A stretch of DNA of 64,000 nt from positions 92,366 through 156,365 of the forward strand of contig CAYOZJ010000001.1 of the NCBI GenBank assembly GCA_964408485.1. The letters run 5' to 3'. Of the stretch, positions 1,660-63,770 are shown one piece after another; the first letter of the stretch is position 1, and every line of letters begins with the position of its first letter. The notes below the pieces were generated by a model. That model was not told where the DNA came from. It did not search any database and was given only the letters and a program-made list of their open reading frames with translations. Source of the stretch: an uncultured Gammaproteobacteria bacterium (lineage in GTDB: Bacteria > Patescibacteriota > Microgenomatia > Levybacterales > UBA12049). Both the position numbers and the translations under genes were made by a program.

Positions 1660-2028
1660 ATGTCGGCTGATATACCCGTAAATTGTTTTAGCTACGCAGT
1701 TGAGGAGGCACTACGTGAGGGAAAGGAAGAATTTATTGCTCCGGATGATATCGTGTATGTTCTTGGCAATCGCTTTGTACTTGTACAAAGCATAAATGAA
1801 GCAACTACGGCAGTTGCTATTGAATATCCCGATACCGCAGGGGATCCAAGAAGAGTTAAAGCGATTCATGCCGCAGCGATTGTACCGGGAACAACACTTG
1901 TTACAGAAAGACAACACGCTGGAGCAGATGTATGCCCTCCCAAGCCAATTGCTGAAGCAATGAAAGGATATCGATTTATTCGATATTATAGACCACGAGA
2001 ACTTCCACCGGTTAGCCCAAGAAGATAA
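1660..2028 (+). CDS. Hypothetical protein, 122 aa. A Cys9...His72 arrangement hints at a papain/NlpC-like fold, unconfirmed.
   Basis: ORF preceded by a TTTACA-17-TATACT promoter 9 nt from the ATG. No confident family match by eye. Confidence 0.35.
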   Translation: MSADIPVNCFSYAVEEALREGKEEFIAPDDIVYVLGNRFVLVQSINEATTAVAIEYPDTAGDPRRVKAIHAAAIVPGTTLVTERQHAGADVCPPKPIAEAMKGYRFIRYYRPRELPPVSPRR

Positions 2029-2530
2029 ATTCTGTTTCTTGGGGTAATTTATCTTTTGTTACAACGTATTTCCCAACAATTGCATGCGGCTTATCAAATG
2101 CTTTTGCATTCTCCTCTGCTTTTTCTCCAACAAATATAAGTACCCGCGCGTTAATTACTCCCATAACTGTTTGGCTAAGTACATCATTGGCAAAAAGCAC
2201 TGCAACATCATGTTCGTGCAATTTCTCTTTAAACATTACAGCAGAGGTTACATTGCCAACAAAAACAGCCATACCTTCCATAGTAACGGTATACATTACT
2301 TCTTCATCGATTTTAAATCCGGTAATTTTTGTCCCCTTCACTTCGTATTCGCCAGGTCCTTGAAAAATAATTCCTGATTCTTCTGTAAAAAATTCCTTTG
2401 ATTGCTCCGTACCCAATAGAAGGGATCCATCTGCTGGGGTTTTACTTTTCCCTGCTGGAAGATTGGTGACAAGCGTTACTTGTTTACCTTTTATTCTAAC
2501 GTTTGTAGGAGTTATGTATGAAATTTCCAT
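2012..2530 (-). CDS. MBL-fold metal-dependent hydrolase-like protein (Lactamase_B_3-like)
   Basis: 172 aa. Pattern resembles the small beta-lactamase-fold hydrolases common in streamlined genomes. 3' end overlaps the convergent upstream ORF by 17 nt. Confidence 0.45.
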   Translation of the reverse strand: MEISYITPTNVRIKGKQVTLVTNLPAGKSKTPADGSLLLGTEQSKEFFTEESGIIFQGPGEYEVKGTKITGFKIDEEVMYTVTMEGMAVFVGNVTSAVMFKEKLHEHDVAVLFANDVLSQTVMGVINARVLIFVGEKAEENAKAFDKPHAIVGKYVVTKDKLPQETEFIFLG

Positions 2531-2621
2531 TTTTCCATAGTATCAAACTACAATTGAATTGACAAGTCAACATGAGTATCGTATTATTCAATACACTTGA
2601 GCGTCCCCTGTCCTTTTTGTT

Positions 2622-3071: not shown

Positions 3072-3854
3072 ATGAAACGATATTTTTTTCTTTTATTTTT
3101 ACTTCTTACAATACTATTGTTGCCTAAGGTAAGTTGGGCTGCAACAACTCCAACCCCGATTAAATCGGGGCCGACCCCAACAGGTAATCAAATCGAACAA
3201 CAAATTAATAATTTAAAGGATAGAATTGCCAGTCGTGTTGCGCAATTAAATCTTGTTGAAAAAAAAGGATTTATCGGTAGCGTTACAGATATTTCTGAAA
3301 CGCAAATTACTATTCAGGATTTACAAGGTAACACACGAATTATTGACGTTGACGAGCTAACAAAATTCTCTTCTCCCTCTGCAAAATCCAGCTTTGGCAT
3401 TTCTGACATTGCGAAAGGTACAACAATTGGCGTAATTGGACTATACAATAAAGATTCCAGGCGCCTCTTGGCACGTTTTGTTGACGTTGTCCAATTACCA
3501 CAAATTTTCTCAGGAGGAATAGTAGGTATAGATAAAGATAACTTTACCTTTACTATGGCAACGGAAAAAAGCCAATCAGTAAATATCGACATTGAAAGTA
3601 TTACTAAAACAACAAGCTATACCAAAACAGATGGGTCTGTTAAAGCAGGATTCTCAAAATTAGCAATAGGACAACGAGTCTTGGTTATTGGTTTTCCAGA
3701 TGCGCGAAATAAAAACCTTACTATTGCATCACGTGTTATTGTTTTTCCTGACCTACCGGTAAATCCAAAAATTCCTCTTATTAATCCAACAGATCTTGCA
3801 CCAATTACGCCGTCCACAGGGAGCGGCAAAACACTGACCCCCATTAAAAAGTGA
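3072..3854 (+). CDS. Secreted hypothetical protein (signal peptide). Contains the PIKSGP palindrome insert.
   Basis: Signal peptide MKRYFFLLFLLLTILLLPKVSWA. Contains TPTPIKSGPTP encoded by the palindrome CCCCGATTAAATCGGGG at 3154-3170. Confidence 0.5.
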   Translation: MKRYFFLLFLLLTILLLPKVSWAATTPTPIKSGPTPTGNQIEQQINNLKDRIASRVAQLNLVEKKGFIGSVTDISETQITIQDLQGNTRIIDVDELTKFSSPSAKSSFGISDIAKGTTIGVIGLYNKDSRRLLARFVDVVQLPQIFSGGIVGIDKDNFTFTMATEKSQSVNIDIESITKTTSYTKTDGSVKAGFSKLAIGQRVLVIGFPDARNKNLTIASRVIVFPDLPVNPKIPLINPTDLAPITPSTGSGKTLTPIKK

Positions 3855-3957
3855 GCGTTAAGGGTATAGCGTCAAGCGTTAAGAAAGTTTTCTCTAAAAA
3901 ACTCATATTCTTTACCCTTCGCTTTACGCTTTCCCCTAGCTATGAGATAATAGCTCC

Positions 3958-5118
3958 ATGAAGTCCCGTCTTAACCATCTCCAGCAAATCATGTCAGCGG
4001 CAGCTGTCGATGGATTTCTTATCTCTTCAAGTAGTAATATTTTTTATCTGTCCGGATTTAATAGATTTTTAGAAGATCACGACGGATTTCTCCTTGTTAC
4101 CAAAAAGGATCACTATCTTATTACTAGTCCCCTCTATACAGAAGCAGTAAAAAAATTTACGCCAGATTTACAGATTCTGGAAACATCTCCTGATGCATGG
4201 TATGCGCAAATGGTAAAACAAGTTGCAGAAAAGCAAAATATAAAAGTGATTGGTTTTGAAGAAAAAGATTTACGTGTCGCAGAATTTTTTGATTTAGAGG
4301 AGCAGAAAATAGAACTAAAAAGCGTATCTCTACGCAACTTACGACTTCAAAAAGATGCTAAGGAAATTAGTGCAATTTCCAAAGCATGCATACTCACCGA
4401 TAAGGCGTTTGAGCATATTCTTCCATTTATTAAAGAAGGCGTAACCGAACTCGATTTAGCAAATAAGATGCAAGAATTTTTAAAGAAAAATAATTCCGAC
4501 ATGGGCTTTCCTGCGATAGTTGCTTTTGGCAGACACTCTGCTGTCCCCCACCATATGACGAGTGAGGAAAAGCTGATAAAAAACAGTTTTGTTTTATTTG
4601 ATTTTGGCGTAAAAGTAGATAGTTACCTCTCCGATATGAGTCGTACTGTTTTTTACGGTGTACCAAGTACTGGACAAATCAAATTATATGAAACAGTTAA
4701 AAAGTCCCAACAAGCAGCAATAGACTATATTGAAAAAAAGCTTCAAACTGTCATTCTGGGGAACGAGGAACGAGTGACACCAGAATCTCGTTCAAAGATA
4801 GATTCTGGACAAGCCAGAATGACGATACCCGACATTTTTACTAAAGACGTGGATGCTCTTTCCCGAAAAGTAATTGAAGACGCAAAATTTACAGCCTACC
4901 CTCACGCGCTAGGACATGGTATAGGACTCGAAGTCCATGAAGCGCCAACCCTCTCTTTGTATTCACCAGAGAAATTATTGGATGGAATGGTATTCACTCT
5001 TGAACCAGGAATCTACGAACCCTCAATGGGTGGAGTCAGAATTGAAGACATGTATGTAATCAGGAATCAGAAACTTGAACAATTGACTCACGCATCCAAA
5101 GAACTTATTGTAATATAG
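3958..5118 (+). CDS. pepP: Xaa-Pro aminopeptidase / M24 family metallopeptidase
   Basis: 386 aa. M24 metal-ligand motifs (HGIGLEVHEAP; C-terminal E...E). N-terminal creatinase-like domain. Confidence 0.85.
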   Translation: MKSRLNHLQQIMSAAAVDGFLISSSSNIFYLSGFNRFLEDHDGFLLVTKKDHYLITSPLYTEAVKKFTPDLQILETSPDAWYAQMVKQVAEKQNIKVIGFEEKDLRVAEFFDLEEQKIELKSVSLRNLRLQKDAKEISAISKACILTDKAFEHILPFIKEGVTELDLANKMQEFLKKNNSDMGFPAIVAFGRHSAVPHHMTSEEKLIKNSFVLFDFGVKVDSYLSDMSRTVFYGVPSTGQIKLYETVKKSQQAAIDYIEKKLQTVILGNEERVTPESRSKIDSGQARMTIPDIFTKDVDALSRKVIEDAKFTAYPHALGHGIGLEVHEAPTLSLYSPEKLLDGMVFTLEPGIYEPSMGGVRIEDMYVIRNQKLEQLTHASKELIVI

Positions 5119-5230
5119 TACCTTTGTTTTCCTCTACTAAAAATTCTTGAATTGTTATATTATTAAATTGTTATATTGTTTGAATAATTTTAGCAATTTA
5201 GCAATTCAACAATGTAGCAATGTATATCTT

Positions 5231-11749: not shown

Positions 11750-11818
11750 CGTCATTGCGAGCAAAACGCGAAGCAATCTTATAAGATCGCCACGGGAATT
11801 CCTGTTCCCTCGCGATGA
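11750..11818. repeat. Intergenic copy of the ~70-bp palindromic element (TIR GTCATTGCGAG...CTCGCGATGAC)
   Basis: Same terminal inverted repeats as the in-frame copies inside nadE, nadD and dnaX. Confidence 0.7.
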
Positions 11819-19138: not shown

Positions 19139-19274
19139 AGTTCTCGACTTCCCGACTCGGTACTAGTGCTCGATTCAGCATTTTCCTCGCCGAGGTGGCG
19201 TTCGCCAAACTGTCGCACACGTTCGCTCGAACAATAAACCTTTCTTTACGCTTTACGCTTTACCATTTACGCTT

Positions 19275-25189: not shown

Positions 25190-25705
25190 TTAAAACGGTA
25201 TATCATCTGCAACGTCATCTGCGCTCATTCCCTGATCTTGTGCTGAGCTTGCCGAAGCATCTGCTTCTTTTTTTACTTCTTTTACTTTTGGCGTTGGCGC
25301 TTCTGTCACTTGCCCTGAGCTAGCCGAACGGGTTGGTTCTACAGAACTTTCAAAATTCCCAGTTCCCTCACGTCTACTATCCAAAACCATCATATCATCG
25401 ATGACGATTTCTGTTGAGTCTTTTTCTACGCCGTCTTTATTCGTATACTTCCTATACGCAATTCTACCCTCAACATATACTTTTCGTCCTTTTGAAAGTA
25501 ACTGGCTACACAGCTCGCCCAACTTATTCCAGGCAACGATTTTATGAAACTCTGTCTCCTCTTTCTTCTCACCTGTATCAGTTGTCCAACTTCTATTGGT
25601 TGCTAAACCAAATGTGGCAACTGCTGTCCCTGTTGGTGTATATCGCAATTCCGGATCTCGTGTTAAATTTCCAATCAACTGTACGCGATTTAAACTTCGT
25701 GCCAT
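25190..25705 (-). CDS. ssb: Single-stranded DNA-binding protein
   Basis: OB-fold N-terminus (VQLIGNLTRDPELRYTPTG), disordered linker, acidic tail ending DDIPF. Confidence 0.92.
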   Translation of the reverse strand: MARSLNRVQLIGNLTRDPELRYTPTGTAVATFGLATNRSWTTDTGEKKEETEFHKIVAWNKLGELCSQLLSKGRKVYVEGRIAYRKYTNKDGVEKDSTEIVIDDMMVLDSRREGTGNFESSVEPTRSASSGQVTEAPTPKVKEVKKEADASASSAQDQGMSADDVADDIPF

Positions 25706-26159: not shown

Positions 26160-26444
26160 ATGGCAGCAGACAGAGAGACAGATATACAACAGGCGGTTGA
26201 GCAATGGCTTATTGAAACAAGACGTCTCAGAGCTCCAAAAGCTCCAGGGAAAACACACGAGGCTTGGTTAGCTCCAACAGAAACTGTAGTAGAGCCACCA
26301 CAAGCAACTCCCCCAGTTGGTGCTCCCTCACTTCACCCAGACAGATATTTTAGAGATTCCACCGGTCTAAGACATATAGACAATCCGTCTCCGCGAGGAT
26401 CAAGTCGGGTGAGAGGTCCCCGCGAACGTGGCAACAGAAGCTAA
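26160..26444 (+). CDS. Small basic/Pro-rich disordered hypothetical protein
   Basis: 94-aa ORF with its own consensus promoter. Composition is locally GC-richer. Confidence 0.35.
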   Translation: MAADRETDIQQAVEQWLIETRRLRAPKAPGKTHEAWLAPTETVVEPPQATPPVGAPSLHPDRYFRDSTGLRHIDNPSPRGSSRVRGPRERGNRS

Positions 26445-26451
26445 AAGTCTC

Positions 26452-26480
26452 TTGACATAACTACGCTGATTCTGTACAAA
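26452..26480 (+). promoter_or_regulatory. Sigma70 promoter TTGACA-17-TACAAA, 8 nt upstream of the ATG at 26489
   Basis: Consensus -35 at 26452-26457. Confidence 0.5.
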
Positions 26481-26488
26481 TAGTAGCT

Positions 26489-26791
26489 ATGGGAAAACAC
26501 AAGAAAGGTAGCCCTGCAACAAGTAAGCTCGCAAAAGACCATGCATACTCCGATACAAGGGATGCTCCTCGTCTTCACTCTAATAGACTAGGCAAACGTC
26601 CTCCAGAAACCGACATGTCTCAGGAGGGAGAAAGCAATGACTCAACAAAAAGAGAAACACCAGGTTTGCGATTTGTACAAGCACCACCAATAACAAGAAG
26701 ACCATCGTCTATTAGACCAAAGCCTGAAACAGAAAGAAGTGCGTACAAAGATATGGTAGATGAGTGGAATGGGAATAAGGAAGAAAAATAA
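26489..26791 (+). CDS. Small basic disordered hypothetical protein
   Basis: 100-aa ORF with its own promoter. Confidence 0.35.
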   Translation: MGKHKKGSPATSKLAKDHAYSDTRDAPRLHSNRLGKRPPETDMSQEGESNDSTKRETPGLRFVQAPPITRRPSSIRPKPETERSAYKDMVDEWNGNKEEK

Positions 26792-26796
26792 AAAAA

Positions 26797-27942
26797 TTAG
26801 CTCCCTATTTTAAATTCAACTACGTCGCCGTCTTTCATTATGTAATCTTTTCCTTCGAGCCGTGCTTTTCCTTTTTCTCTAGACCCCTTCCAACCATTTT
26901 GATCAACAAAGTCCTCATACCCAACAACTTCTGCTTTAATAAATTTCTTTATAAAATCTGTATGAATCTCCCCTGCTGCTTCTGGCGCACTACTTCCTTT
27001 TCGTATTGTCCAAGCCCGCACTTCTTTTTCCCCACAAGTCAAAAAACTTATTAGACCTAACTGCGTATAGGCTTTTTGTATCAAACGCTCTAAGCCCGAC
27101 GCGCTAAGCCCTAAGCCGGCAAGGTATTCTTTTTGCTCATCATCCGAAAGACCTGCTAATTCAGATTCAATTTGCGCACAGATGACAACAATATTGTCTA
27201 CCCCAATGTCATTCCCGCGCAGGCGGGAATCTAGGGAACTGGATCCCTGATCGGAGTCAGGGATGACAGCAGAAAGTAATGAACGATACTCTCTCGTTAC
27301 TTTTTCAATTCCTTCAGGATTATATTGTGATTCACTCACGTTTAGGACAACTAACTCAGGCTTTGAGCTTAGCAGGAATAGCTCTCTTATTGCTTCCCTT
27401 TCTTCCTCGCTAAGATCCATTGCCCTCACCGGTACCCCTTGTTCTAATAGCTTTTGGACTTTCTCATGATTTGCGTTTTTTACTTTGCGATTTACATTCT
27501 GCAGAGTCTGCAGGTCAGCAAGCATAAGCTCAGTATTAATGACTTCATAGTCAGATTTTGGATCTACAGCACCTTCCTTAATAACATTCTCGTCTTCAAA
27601 CGCTCTGACAACATGCGCAACAACCGACACTTCTTTAATGTGCCCTAGGAATTTATTGCCAAGTCCTGCTCCCTCTGATGCACCTTTCACAAGTCCTGCA
27701 ATATCGACAAATTCAACAGTTGCAGGCTTGAGTGGTGGCAATTCACTCATCTTTTCTTCTTCTTTGGTAATCTCAGCAAGCTTGTTAAGTCGCGGATCTG
27801 GCACGGCAACAATCCCTACATTTGGCTCAATAGTTGCAAAAGGATAATTTGCAGCTAACGCTTGCTGCTTTTTAAGAAGCGCATTAAACAATGTAGATTT
27901 TCCTACATTCGGAAGACCGACAATCCCAACACTCAAGTTCAT
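26797..27942 (-). CDS. ychF: Ribosome-binding ATPase YchF (Obg-family GTPase)
   Basis: G1 motif GIVGLPNVGKSTLFNAL. TGS domain C-terminus (DFIKKFIKAEVVGYEDF...VVEFK). Carries an in-frame 60-bp repeat insert. Confidence 0.92.
   Translation of the reverse strand: MNLSVGIVGLPNVGKSTLFNALLKKQQALAANYPFATIEPNVGIVAVPDPRLNKLAEITKEEEKMSELPPLKPATVEFVDIAGLVKGASEGAGLGNKFLGHIKEVSVVAHVVRAFEDENVIKEGAVDPKSDYEVINTELMLADLQTLQNVNRKVKNANHEKVQKLLEQGVPVRAMDLSEEEREAIRELFLLSSKPELVVLNVSESQYNPEGIEKVTREYRSLLSAVIPDSDQGSSSLDSRLRGNDIGVDNIVVICAQIESELAGLSDDEQKEYLAGLGLSASGLERLIQKAYTQLGLISFLTCGEKEVRAWTIRKGSSAPEAAGEIHTDFIKKFIKAEVVGYEDFVDQNGWKGSREKGKARLEGKDYIMKDGDVVEFKIGS
27208..27267. repeat. In-frame 60-bp hairpin-rich insert within ychF (TIR GTCATTCCC...GGGATGAC)
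   Basis: Encodes DSDQGSSSLDSRLRGNDIGV on the minus strand. Contains hairpins CCCGCGCAGGCGGG and CCCTGATCGGAGTCAGGG. The termini are inverted repeats related to the other GATGAC-ended elements. Confidence 0.7.
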
Positions 27943-34000: not shown

Positions 34001-34873
34001 ATGAAGAAAGTTTGGCTCACTGTCATTGCAGTTTTGCTTCTTCTTATTGCAGGACTTGTTTTTTACAAACTCCATATCCAACCCAAACCTGCAGACCTTT
34101 CCAAAACACCAGAGACTGCTCTTCTTGCACAAGTTGCCCTTTGGTATCCATCTGCCGGCTGGTCTTCTCCAAAGATAGATAAACAAACAACACTATACGG
34201 CTCCTTTACTGGAGAAAGTATGCAGGCAACGATAAAAAGCGATAAAGCATTTATGGAGCATTACGAAAATGCAGATACGCTCAAGCAAATGGGATTTTTG
34301 CCTGATACCAATCTTTCTGCAGATGGACCAGGGTCGTCTAGTTGGGGATATTCCAATATAACAAGTAACTCCAAACAATTAATTATTTTTTCGTACCGCA
34401 CCAAGCCAACCAATACTAATCCCAACGAACCTGCTCAATTTACCTGCCCTTGTGATAAAACAATTTCTGTTTTTGTAAGTCTCTCCTCTACCCCAACACA
34501 AGCTACTCACGTTAGCACAACGCCAACCCTGAGTTCCTCCGGTTCAACCGGAGTTCAATCGGGGCCAACACTTGCCAATCCTGCATCGGTCAACTGCACC
34601 AACAAAGGCGGAACCTTACTTATTAAAAAGCGCGGAGACGGCGGTGAATATGGACTATGTGATTTTGGTGATAATATGCAATGCGAAGAATGGGCTCTTT
34701 TCCGAGGAGATTGCCCAGTTGGAGGCAGAAAAACAACAGGATTTGATACGATCGATCAAAAATACTGTGCGTGGCTTGGAGGATCTACCTATGCTGTAGA
34801 AAATGCTACATGCCAATTACCCAACGGCCACAATTGCCTAGATACAGATTTGTATAACGGGACGTGTCAGTAA
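34001..34873 (+). CDS. Exported protein with tandem C-terminal DUF333 (putative hemolysin-like) domains
   Basis: NPASVNCTNKGGTLLIKKRGDGGEYGLCDFGDNMQCEEWALFRGDC matches the DUF333 consensus (NPASVYC..GG......G..Y..C.F.DG..CEEWA..RGEC). A second degenerate copy follows. Confidence 0.65.
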   Translation: MKKVWLTVIAVLLLLIAGLVFYKLHIQPKPADLSKTPETALLAQVALWYPSAGWSSPKIDKQTTLYGSFTGESMQATIKSDKAFMEHYENADTLKQMGFLPDTNLSADGPGSSSWGYSNITSNSKQLIIFSYRTKPTNTNPNEPAQFTCPCDKTISVFVSLSSTPTQATHVSTTPTLSSSGSTGVQSGPTLANPASVNCTNKGGTLLIKKRGDGGEYGLCDFGDNMQCEEWALFRGDCPVGGRKTTGFDTIDQKYCAWLGGSTYAVENATCQLPNGHNCLDTDLYNGTCQ

Positions 34874-41128: not shown

Positions 41129-42658
41129 TTAGACAAATCCTGGAAAGAAATCTTTCTTTATGTGGAATTGAGAAATACCAATTTCCTTAAGCGTTTTTTC
41201 AAATCCCACAACCATACCATGTGGACCGGACAGATAAAAGAGTCTCTCTGTAAAATCTGGAATTTCTTTTCGTATCATATCAGGAGTAATTCTCCCAACC
41301 TGCCCTTTCCAATTTTTTGGCACACTGTCTATATCGGTAAGTGTGTAGATTGTTTTTACTCCAATTTTTTCGCCAATTTGGAAAACATTTTTATACATTA
41401 TTTCCGAATCCGCTTTATTGGAATACATAAGGATAATATCTCGCTTTTCGTCACTATCTATACAATATTTAATCATGCTTCTGAAAGGTGTTATTCCTAT
41501 ACCACCGGCTATAAAGACAAGCTTTTTCTCTAACGACTTTGGCAATGTAAACTCACCACCAAGACTTCCCACTGTAATACTGTCTTTGTCTGAGAGATGG
41601 TGCAAAGCGCGCTTAAAACTACTCCCATTTTCATAAAATTTTACTCCCAAATGAATTGCATTTTCTGTTGGAGAAGATGCAACAGTAAAATACCGCCTGT
41701 TTCCCCTGCTGTCAGTGCTCGGGTGCTTAAGTGTCCACTCCATGTATTGTCCTGGCATAAAGTGAAGCTTTTCTTGAGACGCAAAAACAAATTCCACTTC
41801 GTCTGCACCATATTGTGTTTTTTCTTTCAAATGCAACAGAAGCTTTTGTTTAGGACTTACAATATACGAAAAAATATTTGCAACAACTAATGTTAGCTCT
41901 GGTGAAGAATAAAAAGCGCCAACATGGATATGTGGATCAATAAGCAAAACAACTATTGTCCCGTATACTACTTGTAACAATTTTGTTGGTGGAGATGTAA
42001 GTGGTTCTGTTAACATAACAGTTGCAAAAAATACAATTGCAGAATCTAAGAAAAGTGAAGTAACACTGCTATACATAGGTGTCCCCTGCCAAATTGCAAA
42101 GAGAATAGTTATACCAATAACTCCGAGAAGAAATACAGAAATAAGAATAACTTTTTGAAGTTTTTTAAGGATAAGAAATCCGCCAATAGCGACAAACGGC
42201 AACATAACCGCAGTTCCAATCCACCAACTTGCATATCTCCCTAAAATAAATGCTGTTAAAACAACAGCAATTGCCGCGGGATTAAAAAGATGCTTTTTTT
42301 TGATTGCTAAAATATATTTTGACGCCATGGCAAAAACGCCAGCAAAAATAAAAAATGGAATATCCCTGACAGAAGTCATGGGAGTAATAATAAAAGTGAG
42401 AATAAGTGCGGTAATGTATACAGATTCTACATTCGTTGGCGCTTTAAAAAGGAATGCAAGTATCTTATTGCTTATCCAACAAACAATTGTCAAGAAAAGT
42501 GAAGAAAGTATGAGCGCACCTGGTGAGTAGGAGAGTAATCCACCATATGAAAGGATTGCTGCACACGCTACCCAACCAATTAAAACATACAGCACTACAC
42601 GGTACATGGTAATTCTGTCTAAAAAATTATCTAAAAGATTCAACATAAAAATCGTCAT
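41129..42658 (-). CDS. Fusion protein: RnfD/NqrB-like polytopic membrane domain plus C-terminal FNR-like FAD/NAD(P)-binding oxidoreductase domain
   Basis: N-terminus has KHLFNPAAIAVVL and MLTEPLTSPP, resembling the RnfD/NqrB FNPA and TDPVT motifs. C-terminus has FNR motifs RRYFTVASSP (RxYS), GGIGITP and SGPHGMV. Confidence 0.65.
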   Translation of the reverse strand: MTIFMLNLLDNFLDRITMYRVVLYVLIGWVACAAILSYGGLLSYSPGALILSSLFLTIVCWISNKILAFLFKAPTNVESVYITALILTFIITPMTSVRDIPFFIFAGVFAMASKYILAIKKKHLFNPAAIAVVLTAFILGRYASWWIGTAVMLPFVAIGGFLILKKLQKVILISVFLLGVIGITILFAIWQGTPMYSSVTSLFLDSAIVFFATVMLTEPLTSPPTKLLQVVYGTIVVLLIDPHIHVGAFYSSPELTLVVANIFSYIVSPKQKLLLHLKEKTQYGADEVEFVFASQEKLHFMPGQYMEWTLKHPSTDSRGNRRYFTVASSPTENAIHLGVKFYENGSSFKRALHHLSDKDSITVGSLGGEFTLPKSLEKKLVFIAGGIGITPFRSMIKYCIDSDEKRDIILMYSNKADSEIMYKNVFQIGEKIGVKTIYTLTDIDSVPKNWKGQVGRITPDMIRKEIPDFTERLFYLSGPHGMVVGFEKTLKEIGISQFHIKKDFFPGFV

Positions 42659-42725
42659 TCTGGCTTGTCCAGAATCTGATCATACAGAAAGATCCTGGAT
42701 GCGCTCCGCTTACCAGGATGACAGT

Positions 42726-43922: not shown

Positions 43923-44033
43923 GTTGTTCCATTATTCTAAAAATCCTTTATGAATGCAAGATGAAAAATGAAGATGAGATCCTTCGTTATCGCTCAGGAT
44001 GACAAAAGAATTTTAAAATTATAAATCCTTTTG

Positions 44034-44495
44034 TCAATTTTGACTTTGCGTCATTCCATTAGGAAGAGTTTGTGATTGGGATTGACTATCACTATCTTGA
44101 TTTTGTGACTGACTGCCTTGTGAATTAGAACTACTTTGTGATTGATAATACCAAACAGTCGGTTGAGTTGTATATGTTGTTGTAGTTGTCGTTGTTGTCG
44201 TATTTACTCCACCTTTTGTTGTGCTTCCTTTTTGAAAGGACGGTGTTGGCCCCGATTTAATCGGGGTTGGTGTTGGAGTTGATGCAACAAATCCATATGG
44301 TGTTGGTGTTGGGGAAATTGTTGGAAAAGATGAAGGCTGTGTTACTACTGGCTTTTTATTAAAAAATAATCCTCGAATAACAAAAAATAGGATAAATATA
44401 ACAACGATTACTGCCACAATTCCTAAGATAAGTCGTCCGCGTGATCCTTCTTCTTCCATGACCGGTAGTATAGCACTTCCGAGGCTAATTGACAA
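44034..44495 (-). CDS. Membrane-anchored Thr/Ser/Gln-rich low-complexity protein. Contains the PIKSGP palindrome insert.
   Basis: TM helix plus a TPTPTPIKSGPTPS segment encoded by CCCCGATTTAATCGGGG (44250-44266). Poly-Thr and SQSQ repeats. Confidence 0.4.
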   Translation of the reverse strand: MSISLGSAILPVMEEEGSRGRLILGIVAVIVVIFILFFVIRGLFFNKKPVVTQPSSFPTISPTPTPYGFVASTPTPTPIKSGPTPSFQKGSTTKGGVNTTTTTTTTTYTTQPTVWYYQSQSSSNSQGSQSQNQDSDSQSQSQTLPNGMTQSQN

Positions 44496-51244: not shown

Positions 51245-52645
51245 TTATTTTTTATTTACCCTCGGACCATCTTTACCGTCCATAACATCAAAGCCTAAGT
51301 CGCTTATTTTCTTTCTCAGCTCGTCAGATGCCTTATAATCCCCTGCTTTTCGAAAAGTCTCTCTTTCTTTGAGTAAGTCCTCAACATTCTTTGGTATCTT
51401 TACGCTTTCCGCTTTACGCTTTCCGCTTGCGAGGCCTAAGCCTAAAATGCGATCCATTTCCAAAAGCGTTGCCTTTTTTTCGCCAGGATTAATAATGCGC
51501 TTTGTCATATCCCACACAATACTCAATGCTTTTGCTGTATTTAAGTCGTCGTTAAGAGCTTCCATAAATTGCTCTATCCAAAAAAGATTTGGTGAAGCAG
51601 TAGGATCATTGGTAATATGAGATCGTAATTTCTTAAGACTACTTGCTGCAGCGTCCAAACTTTCCCAGGTAAAATTCATTTCTTGTCTATAATGCGTTTG
51701 TAAATATAAATAACGAAGGCTGAGTGGGTCATACCCTTTTGCAACAACATCCTCCACTGTATAAAAATTACCCAATGACTTACTCATTTTCTGACCTCCA
51801 ACAACCAGAAAATTATGGTGCACCCAGTAATTAACAAATTTCTTGCCCGTTGCAGCCTCAGATTGCGCTATTTCATTTGAATGATGAATTGCAATATGAT
51901 CGATTCCACCTGTGTGAATATCGAGCGTTGGCCCAAGCGCTTTCATGGACATTGCACTACATTCTATATGCCACCCTGGGAAACCCACTCCCCACGGACT
52001 ATCCCATTCCATTTGACGCTTTCCTTGCCCTGAGCCTGCCGAAGGGTCATCTTTGGGAGAAAACTTCCAAAGAGCAAAATCACTAGCATTTTTTTTGCCT
52101 TCAATAAAATCTACTCGTGCTCCTTTTTGCAATTCATCTGGATTTTGCCTGGACAATGCAAAGTAATTTTTAAATTTTGATGTATCAAAATAAATTCCAT
52201 CAGACAAACGGTATGTATATCCTTTCTCTTCTAATTCCTGCACTAATTTAATTTGTTCTTTAATATAATCTGTTGCATGCATGAGATCTTTAGGTAAATC
52301 TATATTAAGCAACTTGCATGAATCTTTAAACTGCTCTTCAAACATTTTTGCAACATCCCACACAGACTTACCAAATTTCTTCGCACCTTTTTCCATTTTA
52401 TCCTCCCCTGTGTCACTATCACTTACTAAGTGACCAACATCGGTAATATTCATTACATGGTGTACTGAATACCCATTTGCTTCCAAAACCCGAATAAGGA
52501 TATCGTCCCAAACGTAACGCCTCATATGCCCAATATGCTGATAGTCATAGACTGTTGGCCCGCAAGAATACATAGCCACTTGTAGTGGCTTTAGTGACTT
52601 AAATTCCTCAACGCTTCTTGTTAATGTGTTATAAATTCGTAACAT
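51245..52645 (-). CDS. cysS: Cysteine--tRNA ligase
   Basis: HIGH (HIGHMRRYV) and KMSKS motifs, and Zn-binding Cys residues. Class I aaRS. Confidence 0.95.
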   Translation of the reverse strand: MLRIYNTLTRSVEEFKSLKPLQVAMYSCGPTVYDYQHIGHMRRYVWDDILIRVLEANGYSVHHVMNITDVGHLVSDSDTGEDKMEKGAKKFGKSVWDVAKMFEEQFKDSCKLLNIDLPKDLMHATDYIKEQIKLVQELEEKGYTYRLSDGIYFDTSKFKNYFALSRQNPDELQKGARVDFIEGKKNASDFALWKFSPKDDPSAGSGQGKRQMEWDSPWGVGFPGWHIECSAMSMKALGPTLDIHTGGIDHIAIHHSNEIAQSEAATGKKFVNYWVHHNFLVVGGQKMSKSLGNFYTVEDVVAKGYDPLSLRYLYLQTHYRQEMNFTWESLDAAASSLKKLRSHITNDPTASPNLFWIEQFMEALNDDLNTAKALSIVWDMTKRIINPGEKKATLLEMDRILGLGLASGKRKAESVKIPKNVEDLLKERETFRKAGDYKASDELRKKISDLGFDVMDGKDGPRVNKK

Positions 52646-52728: not shown

Positions 52729-53316
52729 TTACCCTATTCCTCCTCCTTTATTTTCTGTTGCGCGCTGTGCTTTTAGCAAATTATCATCTTGTTGTTTTTT
52801 CTCTTCTTTTTTCTGCATATCTTGGAATTTTTCCTCCTGCTTATCTTGCTCTTTTTCGTTATTTTCAACGACAGTCTTTCTGTCTCGTCCTTCTGCTTTT
52901 GCTAAAAAGTCCTGATAATACTCTTGGTGAAGACTCCTAAGTTCTTGCTCGATTTTCTGAATCTTTTCTATATCCTCTGGCGACTTACTCCCAGGATCTG
53001 CAACCAATTGTTGACCTGCTTTTGTAAGCATTTGCGGAGCTTGACCTTGTCCTTGTTGCTTTTGCTTACCACCAGCTGCATCCGGACTAAATAAGTCTCC
53101 TCCTTGTAGCGTATTTGCCCCGATTGAATCGGGGTTAAATGATCCATTTTGGGGCTGCTGCTTAGGAGGAGTAAAACTACCACTTATCCCGCCGCTTCCT
53201 TTTACTTGACCTGCTACAGATTTAGTAAAGTCAGCAATTGTCCCACCAATTGCCTGTTTTGTATTTGCTGTTAAATCCTCTAATGCTTCACCAAATCCAT
53301 TTGATCCATCTGACAT
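52729..53316 (-). CDS. Gln/Lys/Glu-rich low-complexity hypothetical protein. Contains a palindrome variant.
   Basis: Encodes NPDSIGAN from CCCCGATTCAATCGGGG (53118-53134). Confidence 0.35.
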   Translation of the reverse strand: MSDGSNGFGEALEDLTANTKQAIGGTIADFTKSVAGQVKGSGGISGSFTPPKQQPQNGSFNPDSIGANTLQGGDLFSPDAAGGKQKQQGQGQAPQMLTKAGQQLVADPGSKSPEDIEKIQKIEQELRSLHQEYYQDFLAKAEGRDRKTVVENNEKEQDKQEEKFQDMQKKEEKKQQDDNLLKAQRATENKGGGIG

Positions 53317-53374: not shown

Positions 53375-53500
53375 AAAAATTTCTAATTTCTAATTACCTA
53401 ATTAACCTAAAGAAATCCCAAATTCCAATTTCTAACATTTTGTCATTGGTGCTTTTTTAGAAATTAGGGTAATTAGGTAAATTAGGTTAATTTTCTTTAA
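53375..53500. repeat. Intergenic ~120-bp element with TAATTAGGT-rich inverted-repeat arms
   Basis: Arms CTAATTACCTAATTAACCTAA / TTAGGGTAATTAGGTAAATTAGGTTAATT. Its core is homologous, in inverted orientation, to the element at 57437-57555. Confidence 0.65.
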
Positions 53501-54308
53501 TGTAAGGCACATGATGTTTAAAGTTATTTTTATCAACAAATCCTAAGACTTTTTTAACGATCTTTTCATCAATTCCTGATGCAACAATTTCTCCATTCGT
53601 CATCCCTTCATCAAACGCACGGTACAAAATTTTGTCTGCTTCTGCATAAGAAAATCCAAATTCATTTTCATCTGCTTGCGAATCCCAGAGCCCTGCAGAA
53701 GGAGCTTTTTCTACAATTTCTTTCGGCACACCTAAATATTTTGCCATTTCCCATACCTGCGTCTTATACAACCCTCGTATTGGCTCAATATCTGATGCCT
53801 CATCTCCAAAACGTGTAAAGTACCCTAAATAGTGCTCACTCTTATTTTCTGTCCCAACTACGAGTGCTTCCAGCTGCTTTGCCAAATCAAATAGATAAAT
53901 CATGCGGACACGTGCCATCATATTGCCTTTGCGCACAGCAAATATGTCATTGCGAGGAGCTTGCGACGCGGCAATCTCTTCATTTGTATTAGATTGCTTC
54001 GTTTCACTCGCAATGACGTCAACTGCACTTTTAATATCCCTCACAAAAATATGATCTTCTTTAAGACCAGCAGCCTCCACTACCATTTGTCCATGCTGGG
54101 AAGACTTTTGACTCATTTCCCCATAGGGCAAAAGTACGGCATAGACATTTTCTTTTCCTAATGCCTTTACTGCCAAGAAAAGTGATGTTGCACTATCCAC
54201 TCCACCTGACACAGCAAGAATAACACGGGAAAAACCCGCAGTTACTACTGTTTGACGAATCCAGGCAATAATCTCCTCTGATTTATTTTTGTAATCAAGA
54301 TCGTTCAT
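53487..54308 (-). CDS. nadE: NH3-dependent NAD+ synthetase, carrying an in-frame repeat insert
   Basis: PP-loop SGGVDSA and the conserved NadE core. 24-aa insert VIASETKQSNTNEEIAASQAPRND. Confidence 0.9.
   Translation of the reverse strand: MNDLDYKNKSEEIIAWIRQTVVTAGFSRVILAVSGGVDSATSLFLAVKALGKENVYAVLLPYGEMSQKSSQHGQMVVEAAGLKEDHIFVRDIKSAVDVIASETKQSNTNEEIAASQAPRNDIFAVRKGNMMARVRMIYLFDLAKQLEALVVGTENKSEHYLGYFTRFGDEASDIEPIRGLYKTQVWEMAKYLGVPKEIVEKAPSAGLWDSQADENEFGFSYAEADKILYRAFDEGMTNGEIVASGIDEKIVKKVLGFVDKNNFKHHVPYIKEN
53946..54017. repeat. 72-bp palindromic element in-frame within nadE
   Basis: TIR GTCATTGCGAG/CTCGCAATGAC. Internal sequence is identical to the copy in nadD and ~90% identical to the copy in dnaX. 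Confidence 0.85.
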
Positions 54309-54358
54309 TGTTAAATGATTAAATTCTTAAATTATTAGCAATATAGCAATTTAGCAAT

Positions 54359-54994
54359 TTAAGAATATAGCTTGTGCTCTATTATATACTTTTCTACACT
54401 TTCAGGCACAAGTCCTGTGATTGATTGACGATCTTTGATTAGATCCCGAATCCGTGTTGCACTATCTTCGAGTGGCACATAATTTGGATCTGTAATAACC
54501 GTTGCATTGCTGGGTGCATTTTCTACAGAAGAGCCTTTGCGAGCAACGACAAGAAAATGTACTTCTTTAAGAAGCTCTTCCCAGTGTGTCCACTTGTGAA
54601 ATACATTCATATTGTCTGACCCCACAACAAAAACAAACTCATGCTCTGGGTATTTCTGACGTAATCTTCGAACAACGGCTATTGTTTCTGTCGCTCCTCC
54701 TATTTCTACTGGTGTCATATCCACCTTCAAAGTGTCATTGCGAGGAGCTTGCGACGCGGCAATCTCTTCATTTGTATTAGATTGCTTCGCTTTGCTCGCA
54801 ATGACGGAAGAAATTGCCAACTCAGCCATTGCTTTTCTGTCTTTTGCAGATGCAACAATTGGCCGCCATTGATGCTGATTCTCTACGCTAAGCCATACCT
54901 CATCTGCCAAACCAATTTTAAGAACCTCTTTTGCAACAGCCAAGTGACCATTATGGATAGGGTCAAATCGTCCACCAAAAATCGCGACCTTCAT
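54359..54994 (-). CDS. nadD: Nicotinate-nucleotide adenylyltransferase, carrying an in-frame repeat insert
   Basis: MKVAIFGGRFDPIHNGH (the HxGH nucleotidyltransferase motif). Insert IASKAKQSNTNEEIAASQAPRND. Start trimmed to MKVAIF. Confidence 0.85.
   Translation of the reverse strand: MKVAIFGGRFDPIHNGHLAVAKEVLKIGLADEVWLSVENQHQWRPIVASAKDRKAMAELAISSVIASKAKQSNTNEEIAASQAPRNDTLKVDMTPVEIGGATETIAVVRRLRQKYPEHEFVFVVGSDNMNVFHKWTHWEELLKEVHFLVVARKGSSVENAPSNATVITDPNYVPLEDSATRIRDLIKDRQSITGLVPESVEKYIIEHKLYS
54734..54805. repeat. 72-bp palindromic element in-frame within nadD
   Basis: Same TIRs and core as 53946-54017. Confidence 0.85.
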
Positions 54995-55182
54995 GAGGAG
55001 TATTTTAGTATTATTGTTCGAGCTTGTCGAGAACTTATTAGGAGAAAAACCGATATCGAATGATACTTGGCCACATCCACCGTATGTTCGCACTTAGCTT
55101 TTCAATACTATTCGTATACGCCTCGTGCCAACATTATTGGTGGATTATGTACTATTTATACTTTAGCTATGGAACATAAAAA

Positions 55183-58815: not shown

Positions 58816-58956
58816 ATATCTTACATCACCCCACCTTCTGTTTTAAATGTCATTCTAAATTTTATTCAAAATCTATTCAAAAAATATATTGCTACATTGC
58901 TAAATTGCTAAATGACTAAAGACAACAATTTAATAATTTAAGAATATAACAATTAT

Positions 58957-60453
58957 TTACTTCTTTAATTCTACCACCACACGAAGCTGTTTGCCAGTTA
59001 TCTCCCGTACTACTTTTTCTAGAATCTCAACTATTTGTGCTTCTCCAAGTTTTTCTTTATGAAATGCGTATGCTGTCTGGAGTACCAACTGAGTATCGGT
59101 AAGAGATTTTACCGTGCAACCTCTGAGTACTCCTGCAACAGAATGATTGTAAGGCTTTACCTTATAAATAAGATTCTCAAGCAAAACGCTCGTATCTTTA
59201 ATATCTTTTGGTAAATCTGTTTGAGTACTTGTTGACTCCTCCTTTTTGGGAGCAACCGGCTTTACACCGCTTAATACTTGCTTTACTTTAAGATTCTGCT
59301 CTTTTTTAAGCATGTCTTTCATGGTATTCCGGTCATTGTGAGGAGCTAAAGGCGACGCGGCAATCTCTTTATCCGTATTAGATTGCTTCGTTTCACTCGC
59401 AATGACAGCGCCTTGCTGACACCACACAACCACAGCTAATTCTAAAGGAAGGGATGGAATAGGGGCATATTTGGTACCTTGATACGCCTCCTCAAATAAG
59501 GGAATGAGTATTTGCATATCTGAAAGAGAAATTTTTATATCGCCCGTGCTATTTGTATTTCCTATTTCCCTTAGTAGTCTCTTATGCAAGTCTGACAAAA
59601 TTTGATAGAGGAAGAATTTTACATCTGTTCCTTCTTCAACAACTTGACTGACTACCTGAAGCGTAGCCTTTGCATCTTTTTTAAGAAAGTTTTCCATAAA
59701 ATCATGAAGATGAGGAAGAATATTCGTTGTTTTAAATGAAGTTTCAAAAACCTCTTTCGTAATCTTTTTTCCATTTGATAATGCAACAACTTCTTCTAAA
59801 ATTTTGGTTGTATCTCTGTATCCCCCATCTCCCATTTCTGCTATTAACCCAAGCGCTTCATCATCTATATCTATTTTTTCCTCTTTTACAATTCTTTTTA
59901 ATGCATGAGTTAGCTCTTCTTTGCTTGCTCTATTTAGAGAAATATGAAAACATCTGGAGATAATGGTTGCGGGGACTTTTTGCGGCTCTGTTGTTGCAAA
60001 AATAAAAACCACATGTGCTGGGGGCTCTTCAATTGTCTTAAGAAGTGCATTAAATGCTTCGTTGGTAAGCATATGCACTTCATCGATAATATAAACTTTT
60101 TTCCGACTAGCGCTTGGTGCTAGATTAACCCGTTCGCGAAGCTCTCTAATTTCATCGATGCCTCTATTGGATGCACCGTCAATTTCCAAAACATCAATGT
60201 TTGATCCATTGGTAATACTTACACATTGGTCACACTCATTACATGGTTCTATACCGTTACGCTTAGAACTTGTACAGTTGAGGACTTTGGCAATGATTCT
60301 GGCAGTTGATGTCTTCCCAAGTCCCTTGGGACCGGTAAATAGAAAGGCATGAGGGATTTCTTTTTGAGACAAAACTGCTGTTAGGGTCTCTCTGAGCTTT
60401 GGACTATCTAACTCTGCAATTGTTTGGGGACGGTATTTTCTGTAGTAAACCAT
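58957..60453 (-). CDS. dnaX: DNA polymerase III subunit gamma/tau, carrying an in-frame repeat insert
   Basis: AAA+ Walker A GPKGLGKTS, zinc module CNECDQC, SRC/sensor motifs. Insert VIASETKQSNTDKEIAASPLAPHNDRN between domain III and the C-terminus. Confidence 0.92.
   Translation of the reverse strand: MVYYRKYRPQTIAELDSPKLRETLTAVLSQKEIPHAFLFTGPKGLGKTSTARIIAKVLNCTSSKRNGIEPCNECDQCVSITNGSNIDVLEIDGASNRGIDEIRELRERVNLAPSASRKKVYIIDEVHMLTNEAFNALLKTIEEPPAHVVFIFATTEPQKVPATIISRCFHISLNRASKEELTHALKRIVKEEKIDIDDEALGLIAEMGDGGYRDTTKILEEVVALSNGKKITKEVFETSFKTTNILPHLHDFMENFLKKDAKATLQVVSQVVEEGTDVKFFLYQILSDLHKRLLREIGNTNSTGDIKISLSDMQILIPLFEEAYQGTKYAPIPSLPLELAVVVWCQQGAVIASETKQSNTDKEIAASPLAPHNDRNTMKDMLKKEQNLKVKQVLSGVKPVAPKKEESTSTQTDLPKDIKDTSVLLENLIYKVKPYNHSVAGVLRGCTVKSLTDTQLVLQTAYAFHKEKLGEAQIVEILEKVVREITGKQLRVVVELKK
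59332..59406. repeat. 75-bp palindromic element in-frame within dnaX
   Basis: TIR GTCATTGTGAG/CTCGCAATGAC. About 90% identical to the nadE and nadD copies. Confidence 0.85.
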
Positions 60454-60682
60454 AGTAATTTGTCATTCTGGGTTTTTCATTTTGTCATCCCGGACTTGAT
60501 CCGGGATCCACTCCTTTTTCTGGATTCCTGCTTTCGCAGGAATGACGCTTAATGAGATCCTTCACTCGACTCAGTATTTGCTTCACCGAAACGGCACACT
60601 TCGTTCAGGATGACAGAGACGAAGCATGATTTAGGATACTACAAAAGGAGGGGTATTAAAAGATTGCAAAGTGTATCGAAAA
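60454..60682. repeat. Cluster of at least four hairpin/MITE-like repeat units upstream of dnaX
   Basis: TTGTCATTCTGGG; TTGTCATCCCGGACTTGATCCGGGAT hairpin; ATTCCTGCTTTCGCAGGAATGAC hairpin; GAGATCCTTC...TTCAGGATGACAGAGACGAAG hairpin. Confidence 0.65.
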
Positions 60683-62188: not shown

Positions 62189-62371
62189 AAATATTACACC
62201 TCCCCCGTTAGATAGTCCCGTTAGGACATCTAACGGGGCCACATGAGATGTCTCAAGACTATCTCATTGTGGCTAAAATCTATCCTTTTTGAAGCTTGAA
62301 TTGCCTTATTATAGCATATGAATGTGGAAAACTAAACGTTCTTAACGCTTGACGCTTTACCCTTTGCGCTT

Positions 62372-62816: not shown

Positions 62817-63770
62817 TCAAGTCTTTTCCAAGACTTTTACGATTTCGTCTAGACTCAATCGTGTTGGAACCATTTTGGGATTTTTTGGTGTACCATTTAA
62901 AAGCATTTTATTAGACACGTGTAAAAACCATGTTGCCTCAGGATCCATTTTTTCAAGCTGATCTCTTACTAAAGACAAATTAATATCAGGGACATTGTCA
63001 AACAAATGAGATCCTTCGCTTCGCTCAGGATGACGAGGGGGTGCGGGCACTGCTTTTATACGCACATACCCTTTTCGTGGATCGCGTCTTATAACCACTA
63101 CATATCCCATCTTTTGCGCAAGCTTAATAACGCTATCGTTAATTGTTTCTAGCGCAAGTCCTTTTCCCCATTTTGTTGTAAATTCTCTGCCTTTGTCTAT
63201 TTCTTTCTCTGCCCAAATGCGACTTTCAAATCTCTTAAGCATTGCGTCTAAAATCTCCATTCCCCAGCTTACAAAAAATTCGTCATTATCTGGATGGAGT
63301 CCTTTCATTCCCTCTAGAATTCCATATAGACTAAATTCATGAATATCAGATCCTGCATCTGGCCAAAAAATCTCCTGAAAATGATCAAGACTTACAATAT
63401 AACTAACAATGCGCTCCATGGCAGCAATTTTATCTTCTCTTTTGCCATCTGACGTTGTTGCGTGAAGCGCTGGATTTTCTTTAACAACATACTCCCAGCA
63501 TCTACTTGTACTGCAAATATTGGTGTCATAAATTTGATGATGATCAAGAGGTGTAAGACCAGTATCGACGTGGATTATTTTGGTATCGTCTGACTCAACA
63601 ATGATTTGTGTATCTGCTTCTTTTTCTTTTCGCAAAACTCGTGGACTTCTCTGTCCTGCTGGGACAAATTCTACTTTTGCATTATCCCATCCAGGTAAAA
63701 ATCTTTTAAGAATCCAGACCGATCCAATGGCATCCCAATCAGGAGATGCGTGTGCAATGATAACGTGCAT
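62817..63770 (-). CDS. DHH family phosphoesterase (NrnA-like nanoRNase/pAp phosphatase), with an in-frame short repeat insert
   Basis: Motif I HASPDWDAIGS and motif III IIHVDTGLTPLDHH. The repeat GAGATCCTTCGCTTCGCTCAGGATGAC (63003-63032) encodes PERSEGS inside the ORF. Confidence 0.75.
   Translation of the reverse strand: MHVIIAHASPDWDAIGSVWILKRFLPGWDNAKVEFVPAGQRSPRVLRKEKEADTQIIVESDDTKIIHVDTGLTPLDHHQIYDTNICSTSRCWEYVVKENPALHATTSDGKREDKIAAMERIVSYIVSLDHFQEIFWPDAGSDIHEFSLYGILEGMKGLHPDNDEFFVSWGMEILDAMLKRFESRIWAEKEIDKGREFTTKWGKGLALETINDSVIKLAQKMGYVVVIRRDPRKGYVRIKAVPAPPRHPERSEGSHLFDNVPDINLSLVRDQLEKMDPEATWFLHVSNKMLLNGTPKNPKMVPTRLSLDEIVKVLEKT

Follow-up and report, generated by a model that had tools for sequence, protein, structure and literature searches.

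A 60-bp pair of inverted hairpin units in frame in the ychF gene of an uncultured ultra-small bacterium, a likely miniature element

Hairpins of the Neisseria Transformation Sequence (NTS) and Ssn-related motif (SRM) type were tied to Ssn nucleases only in 2025 (PMC11893778). SsnA, a 94-aa GIY-YIG protein, binds the NTS hairpin as single-stranded DNA (ssDNA) only and cuts a few nucleotides upstream of it; the three bases before the palindrome decide cutting, the C after the palindrome decides binding, and the ssnA gene is flanked by such motifs on both sides (PMC11893778). Here, we describe a 60-bp pair of hairpin units that lies in frame within ychF, the gene of a conserved ATPase of the YchF/OLA1 group, in a stretch of 64,000 nt (hereafter, the window) from an uncultured ultra-small bacterium (contig CAYOZJ010000001.1 of assembly GCA_964408485.1, positions 92,366–156,365 of the forward strand). 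We consider it likely that these 60 bp are a selfish, Ssn-related hairpin pair, a non-autonomous element resembling a miniature inverted-repeat transposable element (MITE), which would be moved in trans and is tolerated in a permissive loop of YchF. We found no description of such inserts in Patescibacteria in the literature.

The hairpin pair and its host gene

The features of the ychF locus are as follows.

26797–27942, minus strand: ychF, intact, 381 aa; G1 (GLPNVGKST), G3 (DIAGL), G4 (NVSE) and the C-terminal TGS domain all found
27208–27267: 60-bp hairpin pair; GTCAT...ATGAC ends exact; codon-aligned, encoding residues 226–245 (VIPDSDQGSSSLDSRLRGND)
27207–27234, plus strand: unit A, TGTCATTCCCGCGCAGGCGGGAATCTAG; 27 of the 28 bases of the NTS consensus CGTCATTCCCGCGMAVGCGGGAATCYRG; fits the SRM pattern
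27211–27230, plus strand: core of unit A, a dRS3-type palindrome, ATTCCC-N8-GGGAAT
27235–27238: GGAA, the 4 bases separating the two full units
27239–27268, minus strand: unit B, TGTCATCCCTGACTCCGATCAGGGATCCAG in minus-strand reading; second hairpin type, with the stem ATCCCTGA/TCAGGGAT
27268–27270, minus strand: extra codon GCT (Ala225) adjoining the pair, missing from empty orthologs too; net gain 63 bp or 21 aa

A preliminary description of this DNA had placed an in-frame, hairpin-rich 60-bp segment of ychF at 27208–27267. The coordinates and codon alignment were confirmed; the peptide that it assigned to the segment, DSDQGSSSLDSRLRGNDIGV, covered the right region but was offset by three residues from VIPDSDQGSSSLDSRLRGND. 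The segment is composed of two units, each consisting of GTC, a palindrome beginning and ending in AT, and C, which are arranged tail to tail. Both internal hairpins that had been noted are real and longer than reported (ATTCCCGC-gcag-GCGGGAAT and ATCCCTGA-tcggag-TCAGGGAT), and folding of the 60 bp as ssDNA yielded two separate hairpins at −17.8 kcal/mol (z = −4.3; 0 of 200 shuffles as good). The inverted termini that had been proposed, GTCATTCCC and GGGATGAC, do contain inverted heads, but the inversion is imperfect, the reverse complement of GGGATGAC being GTCATCCC, one base shorter. These termini are not classical terminal inverted repeats; instead, each is the 5' GTCAT head of one hairpin unit, and the two units are oppositely oriented.

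We compared the two units with the published motifs. Unit A passed the NTS test (at most one mismatch to CGTCATTCCCGCGMAVGCGGGAATCYRG, a sequence that includes the dRS3 palindrome) and unit B failed it. The SRM pattern, HGTCWYN(0-2)YYVSBRHN(0-5)WNVSBRGN(0-2)RNCYNB, matched twice in the window (unit A and a unit at 60483–60511) against 0.03 matches expected. Each half of the pair was found only once in the window, with 0 matches expected. By its sequence, unit A is essentially the NTS, an Ssn-related motif. Both units of the insert have the hairpin palindrome, the GTC upstream and the C directly after it. A single compensated pair in the stem sets unit B apart from the common B form (CCCTGA/TCAGGG in the window versus CCCCGA/TCGGGG in the common form and in ortholog P0002), and it is because of this pair that unit B misses the strict SRM pattern, which the P0002 version of B passes.

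The ychF product matched the YchF structures of E. coli (8kie; E = 3e-96), H. influenzae (1jal; E = 9e-95), and Thermus (2dby; E = 5e-92), and contained the Pfam domains MMR_HSR1 (PF01926), YchF-GTPase_C (PF06071), and TGS (PF02824). A G domain with an NxxE-type G4, an inserted helical domain, and a C-terminal TGS domain place it in the YchF/OLA1 group. Among the six frames of the 60-mer, the frame used is the sole stop-free one, as a selection filter would leave it, and the tryptic peptide covering the insert is SLLSAVIPDSDQGSSSLDSR. In an AlphaFold2 model of the protein (mean predicted local distance difference test score [pLDDT], 82; predicted template modeling score [pTM], 0.81), the insert was placed in a G-domain loop between helix 209–224 and strand 251–254, with pLDDT <50 at residues 230–247. 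This mapping of the insertion site to a low-confidence loop, which the preliminary description had suggested carrying out, predicts that the insert sits in a disordered surface loop of YchF. The element lies between the last helix and the strand that precedes G5; going by the Ras-like fold, this would be the strand end remote from the G5 nucleotide contact. YchF with 21 extra residues probably keeps its function.

Comparison with empty YchF proteins showed the insert to be a derived, in-frame gain. The E. coli, H. influenzae, and Thermus structures lack the segment, the connection in the window protein being 22–24 residues longer, and their alignments stopped at query residues 208–210 and restarted at 245–251. 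Our ortholog set comprised the 120 best homologs, all of them Patescibacteria-type YchF with 66–100% identity, several of which are named Levybacteria. Most were 365–367 aa long (about 363 aa had been anticipated without the insert), with an empty site of the form Y-x-x-L-L-G-[IV]-[DE]-K-E-K followed by the VVICAQ strand. Alignment of the window YchF with the empty ortholog P0009 (76% identity) left a single 21-aa gap, exactly at the insert site, and the length balance (381 = 365 + 21 − 5) is accounted for by a helical domain that is shorter by 5 residues in the window protein. At the DNA level, the gain relative to the empty site is the 60-bp element plus one codon (GCT). The segment, whose conservation across distant YchF homologs had been named as a point that would count against an insertion, is missing from them and from most close orthologs, which indicates a derived gain. 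The insert peptide is unconserved even between orthologs 75–80% identical.

Repeated colonization of the YchF loop and spread of the pair

Extra residues (at least 5) were found among the 120 orthologs at three hotspots: in 33 at the insert site, in 10 after residue 62, and in 4 after residue 119. The peptides at the insert site derive from several unit families (VIANEVKQS...AASQAPRND, DSGQARMT, ILKQVQDD, RLPSVAQDD, and VISSSSEKS). In a neighbor-joining tree constructed without the hotspot columns, filled and empty forms were interspersed, which argues that a site empty in the ancestor was filled independently many times. The pair of units A and B was present in four orthologs, as B then A in the window and P0019 (with an enlarged A loop in the latter) and as A then B in P0002 and P0047. 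The P0002 copy, in a protein 80% identical to the window YchF, has the canonical 54-bp form, and P0047 carries a decayed copy with three hairpin-breaking changes. The same YchF loop has been colonized repeatedly, in both orientations. The hotspot would reflect tolerance of the loop, possibly together with a target preference; the empty-site sequences (GGGATAGAT and GGAATAGAT) resemble the 3' halves of the units, a possible microhomology that is too weak to claim. As a separate observation, the third hotspot, after residue 119, is filled in four orthologs by peptides of the ASSGQAP/AGSGQ type, as produced by the CTTGCCCTGAGC..GCCGAAG repeat of the window described below.

We scanned GTDB, at one genome per species, for the pair using the relaxed pattern A-N(0-25)-GATCCC-N12-GGGATGAC and obtained 96 stretches from several phyla. 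Carriers among Patescibacteria included Roizman-, Davies-, Gottesman-, Lipton-, Andersen-, and Saccharibacteria, WWE3, and others, and carriers elsewhere, Proteobacteria included, comprised Coxiellaceae, Lysobacterales, Rhodoferax, Comamonas, Rickettsia, Omnitrophota, Margulisbacteria, and others; a single Roizmanbacteria genome held at least 10 copies. The B stems were conserved across pairs, the commonest being GATCCCCGATCGG[GA]GTCGGGGATGAC, and the spacers typically started with CA and finished with CTG. The shortest common form, which is also the commonest, measures 54 bp, its units overlapping on CCATGG. Pair length was a multiple of three in 46 of 99 cases, a mild enrichment that is confounded by the family of one genome and was not used as evidence. 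The relaxed pattern had no match in viral contigs, hence no sign of phage carriage.

Twenty-two of the 82 distinct pairs were located well inside long open reading frames (ORFs), 13 of 38 in Patescibacteria and 9 of 44 elsewhere. Hosts confirmed by Pfam were a class I aminoacyl-tRNA synthetase, two glutamyl-tRNA synthetase (GluRS) genes, and ribosomal protein L1; further host ORFs were read, by eye only, as SecA and a penicillin-binding protein. In two GluRS genes from different lineages of Patescibacteria (L024 and L035), the pair occupies the same linker between the catalytic and anticodon-binding parts in a different orientation or frame, and this linker is a second shared insertion hotspot.

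Ssn-like genes, a possible mechanism, and alternatives

A link to Ssn-type genes was found in a Patescibacteria genome (L010), where a 101-aa GIY-YIG ORF (PF01541; E = 9e-16) lies amid the same A and B units, with a forward A unit upstream and a reverse B unit after its stop codon. Positions 1700–2320 of this locus form a NIME-like array (pair, single B unit, degenerate hairpin, pair, ssn, reverse B unit, A remnant), and the ATGAC of a unit there provides an in-frame upstream ATG for the GIY-YIG gene. Across 80 metagenome loci encoding relatives of the L010 protein, the nearest upstream unit was usually forward and approximately 10–35 bp from the start, and the nearest downstream unit was usually reverse and approximately 7–45 bp past the stop. 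Strict forward/reverse flanks were seen in 24 of the 67 evaluable loci, and about half of the forward/reverse pairs had unlike stems, as judged by eye. The flanking stems were ATTCCCGC, ATCCCCGC, ATTCCTGC, ATTCTGGC, and ATCCCGGA, all of which except ATCCCCGC also occur in the window. The 60-bp pair thus has the layout of unit-ssn-unit from which the gene is absent. The Ssn-like proteins are approximately 70% identical across distant phyla, which fits their horizontal spread. A sequence search yielded no relative of solved structure, and NCBIfam contained no specific family for the protein, the sole match being a sub-threshold one to a group I intron endonuclease.

Under the model that we propose, an Ssn-type nuclease would recognize the units in their ssDNA form and nick both strands, in each case immediately 5' of GTCAT. 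The opposite orientation of the units would offer the enzyme one unit per strand, so that the nicks would fall just outside both ends of the pair. Nicking would take place when the DNA is single-stranded or extruded and would start copying or transfer, after which strand displacement or repair could produce a copy of the pair at another location. Where genomes are gene-dense, the intragenic copies expected to survive would be those that consist of whole codons, contain no stops, and lie in permissive loops; the ychF pair may have survived because it adds whole codons, is read in its only stop-free frame, and falls in a predicted disordered surface loop. The preliminary description had linked the segment to the other repeat families of the window, and indeed all of them share the GTC, the AT-palindrome-AT, and the C, which include the positions that decide cutting and binding by SsnA. 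Its further suggestion, that one mobilization mechanism serves several palindromic families, is plausible, although several unit families probably need several cognate enzymes, since Ssn enzymes are sequence-specific, and the ATTGC and ATCCT families were not seen beside the Ssn-like genes sampled.

Several observations weigh against an Ssn-driven mobile pair. The activities demonstrated for SsnA are ssDNA cleavage and the limiting of transformation rather than the movement of repeats (PMC11893778). Unit B and most other unit families of the window fail the published SRM pattern, and the A–B pair occurs in the window as a single copy. The exact pair of the window was not found among the GTDB representative genomes. 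Searches by motif and tblastn, the latter with a RAYT query used for screening only, detected neither an Ssn-like nor a Y1-transposase gene in the 64-kb window or the 21-kb locus of a relative. None of the best 120 matches to the Ssn-like protein was named Levybacteria. No target-site duplication was seen at 8 junctions, and the neighbor-joining tree is rough, leaving the number of independent insertions uncertain.

The pair could alternatively be a REPIN, that is, two inverted REPs mobilized by a RAYT (an IS200/IS605-type Y1 HUH transposase), as proposed for the Neisseria ATTCCCGCGCAGGCGGGAATC repeat; we regard this as unlikely, although it is the best of the alternatives. Bertels and Rainey identified the 21-mer of unit A as the Neisseria REP and paired it with a Group 2 RAYT, and the inverted geometry fits, with unit A on the plus strand and unit B on the minus strand within 60 bp (criterion, <130 bp). 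The arms, however, are not near-identical, as the stems differ (ATTCCCGC versus ATCCCTGA) and form two hairpins instead of a single long one, and the window has one copy of the pair and no RAYT. A Y1-transposase-like ORF (PNHIH ... YIHRNP) is located approximately 2 kb from an A–B pair in a Patescibacteria genome (L046), but it is the only one in approximately 0.7 Mb of pair-bearing loci, whereas GIY-YIG genes are tightly and directionally flanked by these units. Apart from this question, we noted that the L046 ORF (approximately 2000–2600, minus strand; PNHIHFLV ... YIHRNPLE) has a GTCATCCT unit just past its 3' end and that the same genome also holds an Ssn-like gene. The REPIN/RAYT and Ssn models are not mutually exclusive.

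Slightly less probable again is a single old insertion into YchF that was altered in place, through inversion at the GTCAT/ATGAC heads and gene conversion with other copies of such elements as donors, and sometimes precisely deleted. P0001, P0002, and P0003 share the left junction LL-S-x|GTCAT despite carrying different elements or orientations, the A–B pair is found both ways round, and the GTCAT heads common to all families offer possible microhomology. Against a single event, the empty orthologs keep the LLG[IV][DE]KEK of distant relatives and are sisters of filled ones across the tree, single units (for example, ILKQVQDD) show junction differences of a few bases, and the IGVDN to the right of the window element resembles the G[IV]DK of the empty site, as simple insertion predicts. 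In-place inversion or gene conversion could still explain part of the variety at the site.

A lineage-specific functional loop, selected for its peptide or mRNA structure and only incidentally similar to repeats, seems very improbable. The open frame, the intact gene, and the maintenance of the hairpin stems, with their compensated pair between P0001 and P0002, would agree with selection. On the other hand, the peptide lacks conservation, the site is either empty or occupied by element families unrelated to one another, these DNA units are also found across phyla in intergenic DNA and in genes of unrelated kinds, and the model predicts disorder; an Rfam scan of the window matched only a tRNA elsewhere and nothing in the insert, and no terminator-like site was detected within the 60 bp. 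Finally, an assembly or binning artifact, conceivable in a metagenome-assembled contig in which repeats can cause misjoins, can be practically dismissed, because an independent Logan assembly of run SRR9179560 is identical base for base over a 3.4-kb stretch that includes ychF, the reading frame runs on both sides, and dozens of orthologs from other samples have comparable inserts at the site.

Returning to a selfish, Ssn-related pair, we put forward only tentatively a broader view, in which tail-to-tail Ssn-related pairs may be true mobile miniature elements and a main route of loop gain for proteins of the candidate phyla radiation and some others, re-entering the same loops of essential proteins either way round and spreading between phyla with small GIY-YIG genes. 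If so, the three hotspots and dozens of gains of YchF would constitute a natural series, with sites that are empty, filled, flipped, or decayed, from which the insertion chemistry of a GIY-YIG element could be deduced. The present case itself provides a testable link between the GIY-YIG ssDNA nuclease family and MITE-like spreading, and shows NTS-type units acting as coding inserts in essential genes of reduced genomes. It helps to explain odd low-complexity peptides (such as VIPAQAGI, DSRLRGND, and VIASEAKQS) that encumber the protein databases and the alignments of sequences from uncultured bacteria, and the inserts mark permissive loops in conserved proteins.

Other repeats of the window and comparison with known systems

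The window contained 13 GTCAT-hairpin-C units, compared with 0.59 in dinucleotide shuffles, including five further inverted pairs. The GTC upstream and the C downstream of the palindrome are kept in all unit families, with the exception of one copy lacking the C.

4802–4823, minus strand: single unit gtcATTCTGGcttgtCCAGAATc, in frame (DSGQARMT) in the Peptidase_M24 gene 3958–5118
11751–11777, plus strand: single unit gtcATTGCgagcaaaacgcgaaGCAATc, at the end of a 123-aa ORF without a Pfam match
42654–42722: 69-bp inverted pair of ATTCTGG and ATCCTGG units, solely inside a 103-aa ORF without a Pfam match
43979–44003, minus strand: single unit gtcATCCTgagcgataacgaAGGATc, within no ORF of at least 50 aa
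48207–48231, minus strand: single unit gtcATCCTgagcagagtcgaAGGATa, the copy without C after the palindrome
53945–54018: inverted pair of approximately 72 bp, GTCATTGCGAG family, in frame in the NAD synthase gene 53487–54308
54733–54806: pair of the GTCATTGCGAG family, in frame in the cytidylyltransferase-like (nadD-type) gene 54359–55093
59334–59407: diverged copy of the GTCATTGCGAG family (77% identity), in frame in dnaX 58957–60453
60484–60546: 63-bp inverted pair of ATCCCGGA and ATTCCTGC units, intergenic, immediately upstream of the start of dnaX; the SRM pattern is matched by its first unit
63011–63034, minus strand: single unit gtcATCCTgagcgaagcgaAGGATc, in frame (HPERSEGS) in the 317-aa ORF 62817–63770

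Thus, at least six ORFs of the window carry in-frame units: the M24 peptidase, NAD synthase, nadD-type, dnaX, and ychF genes, with Pfam matches above threshold, and the 317-aa ORF, which has a weak, sub-threshold DHH match (22.7 bits versus a cut-off of 28.1). The ATTCTGG unit and its flanks occur as perfect 27-nt reverse-complement copies at 4800–4826, in frame in the M24 peptidase gene, and at 42651–42677, as the opening unit of the 69-bp pair; with an identity of 100%, the copying may be recent.

Other repeats were also observed. A hairpin family, GCCCCGATT-N-AATCGGGG(C/T), is present at 3145–3178, 44242–44275, 34543–34571, and 53111–53139, in frame as TPTPIKSGPTP or similar in the ORFs 3072–3854, 44034–44495, 34001–34873, and 52729–53316; lacking the GTCAT head, it may be a separate class of coding palindrome. 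The CTTGCCCTGAGC..GCCGAAG repeat, which translates as SASSGQ or SAGSGQ, is located at 25237–25259 and 25309–25331 in ssb (25190–25705) and at 52024–52046 in a 466-aa ORF (51245–52645). TAGCAAT(T/A)T-like heptamers, some direct and some inverted, make up AT-rich intergenic arrays at 5139–5230, 54335–54376, and 58878–58957; these are located immediately outside the M24 peptidase gene end and the dnaX end and in the interval separating nadE from the nadD-like gene. Short arrays of TTTACGC/TTGACGC heptamers are found in four places (19243–19274, 51397–51428, 62340–62371, and an inverted copy at 3854–3914), one of which falls inside the 466-aa ORF. Just past the ychF stop codon, in the minus-strand direction, the stretch 26160–26791 is unusually G+C-rich and contains two plus-strand ORFs (94 and 100 aa) of low complexity, rich in Pro, Arg, and Ser, whose status as genes is doubtful.

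Finally, we compared the pair with the described systems. It resembles the NTS/dRS3/SRM–SsnA system (PMC11893778) in unit A (27 of 28 bases and a fit to the SRM), the hairpin core, the GTC before and the C after it, and in that relatives of the Patescibacterial single-domain GIY-YIG protein are flanked on both sides, as is ssnA. It differs in forming a tail-to-tail pair with unlike stems, in frame in coding sequence, in a Patescibacterium whose window has no ssn gene; PMC11893778 describes clusters around genes, and the words 'intragenic', 'ORF', and 'MITE' were not found in its text. With the Rickettsia palindromic elements (RPEs), the classic example of selfish palindromes read in frame, set beside the pair here by their description only, it shares the character of a small in-frame palindrome entering many unrelated housekeeping genes at fold-compatible sites (PMC10969869), and a Rickettsia metagenome-assembled genome carries A–B-like pairs. 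RPEs, however, are approximately 150 bp long and form ten families within Rickettsia (PMC10969869), whereas the pair measures 60 bp, consists of NTS-type units, and occurs across phyla, with recurrent use of one loop of orthologs in both orientations.

The REPIN/RAYT system likewise consists of inverted pairs of short hairpins, and the core of the Neisseria REPIN is the 21-mer of unit A; REPINs, however, are typically extragenic, whereas the present pair is intragenic, has unlike arms, and is single-copy in a window without a RAYT. Bacterial MITEs (Correia, ERIC, and BOX) are similar in being short and devoid of coding capacity, in having inverted ends and a gene-carrying relative (here, unit-ssn-unit), and in being sometimes fused in frame to ORFs. 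Here, in contrast, the inverted ends are merely GTCAT heads of 5–8 nt, the terminal repeats and duplication by which MITEs are recognized were not found, and the presumed enzyme would be a GIY-YIG nuclease rather than a DDE transposase. Taken together, the pair lacks the near-identical arms of a REPIN, behaves like an RPE at a size other than that described for RPEs, and passes the NTS and SRM tests through unit A.

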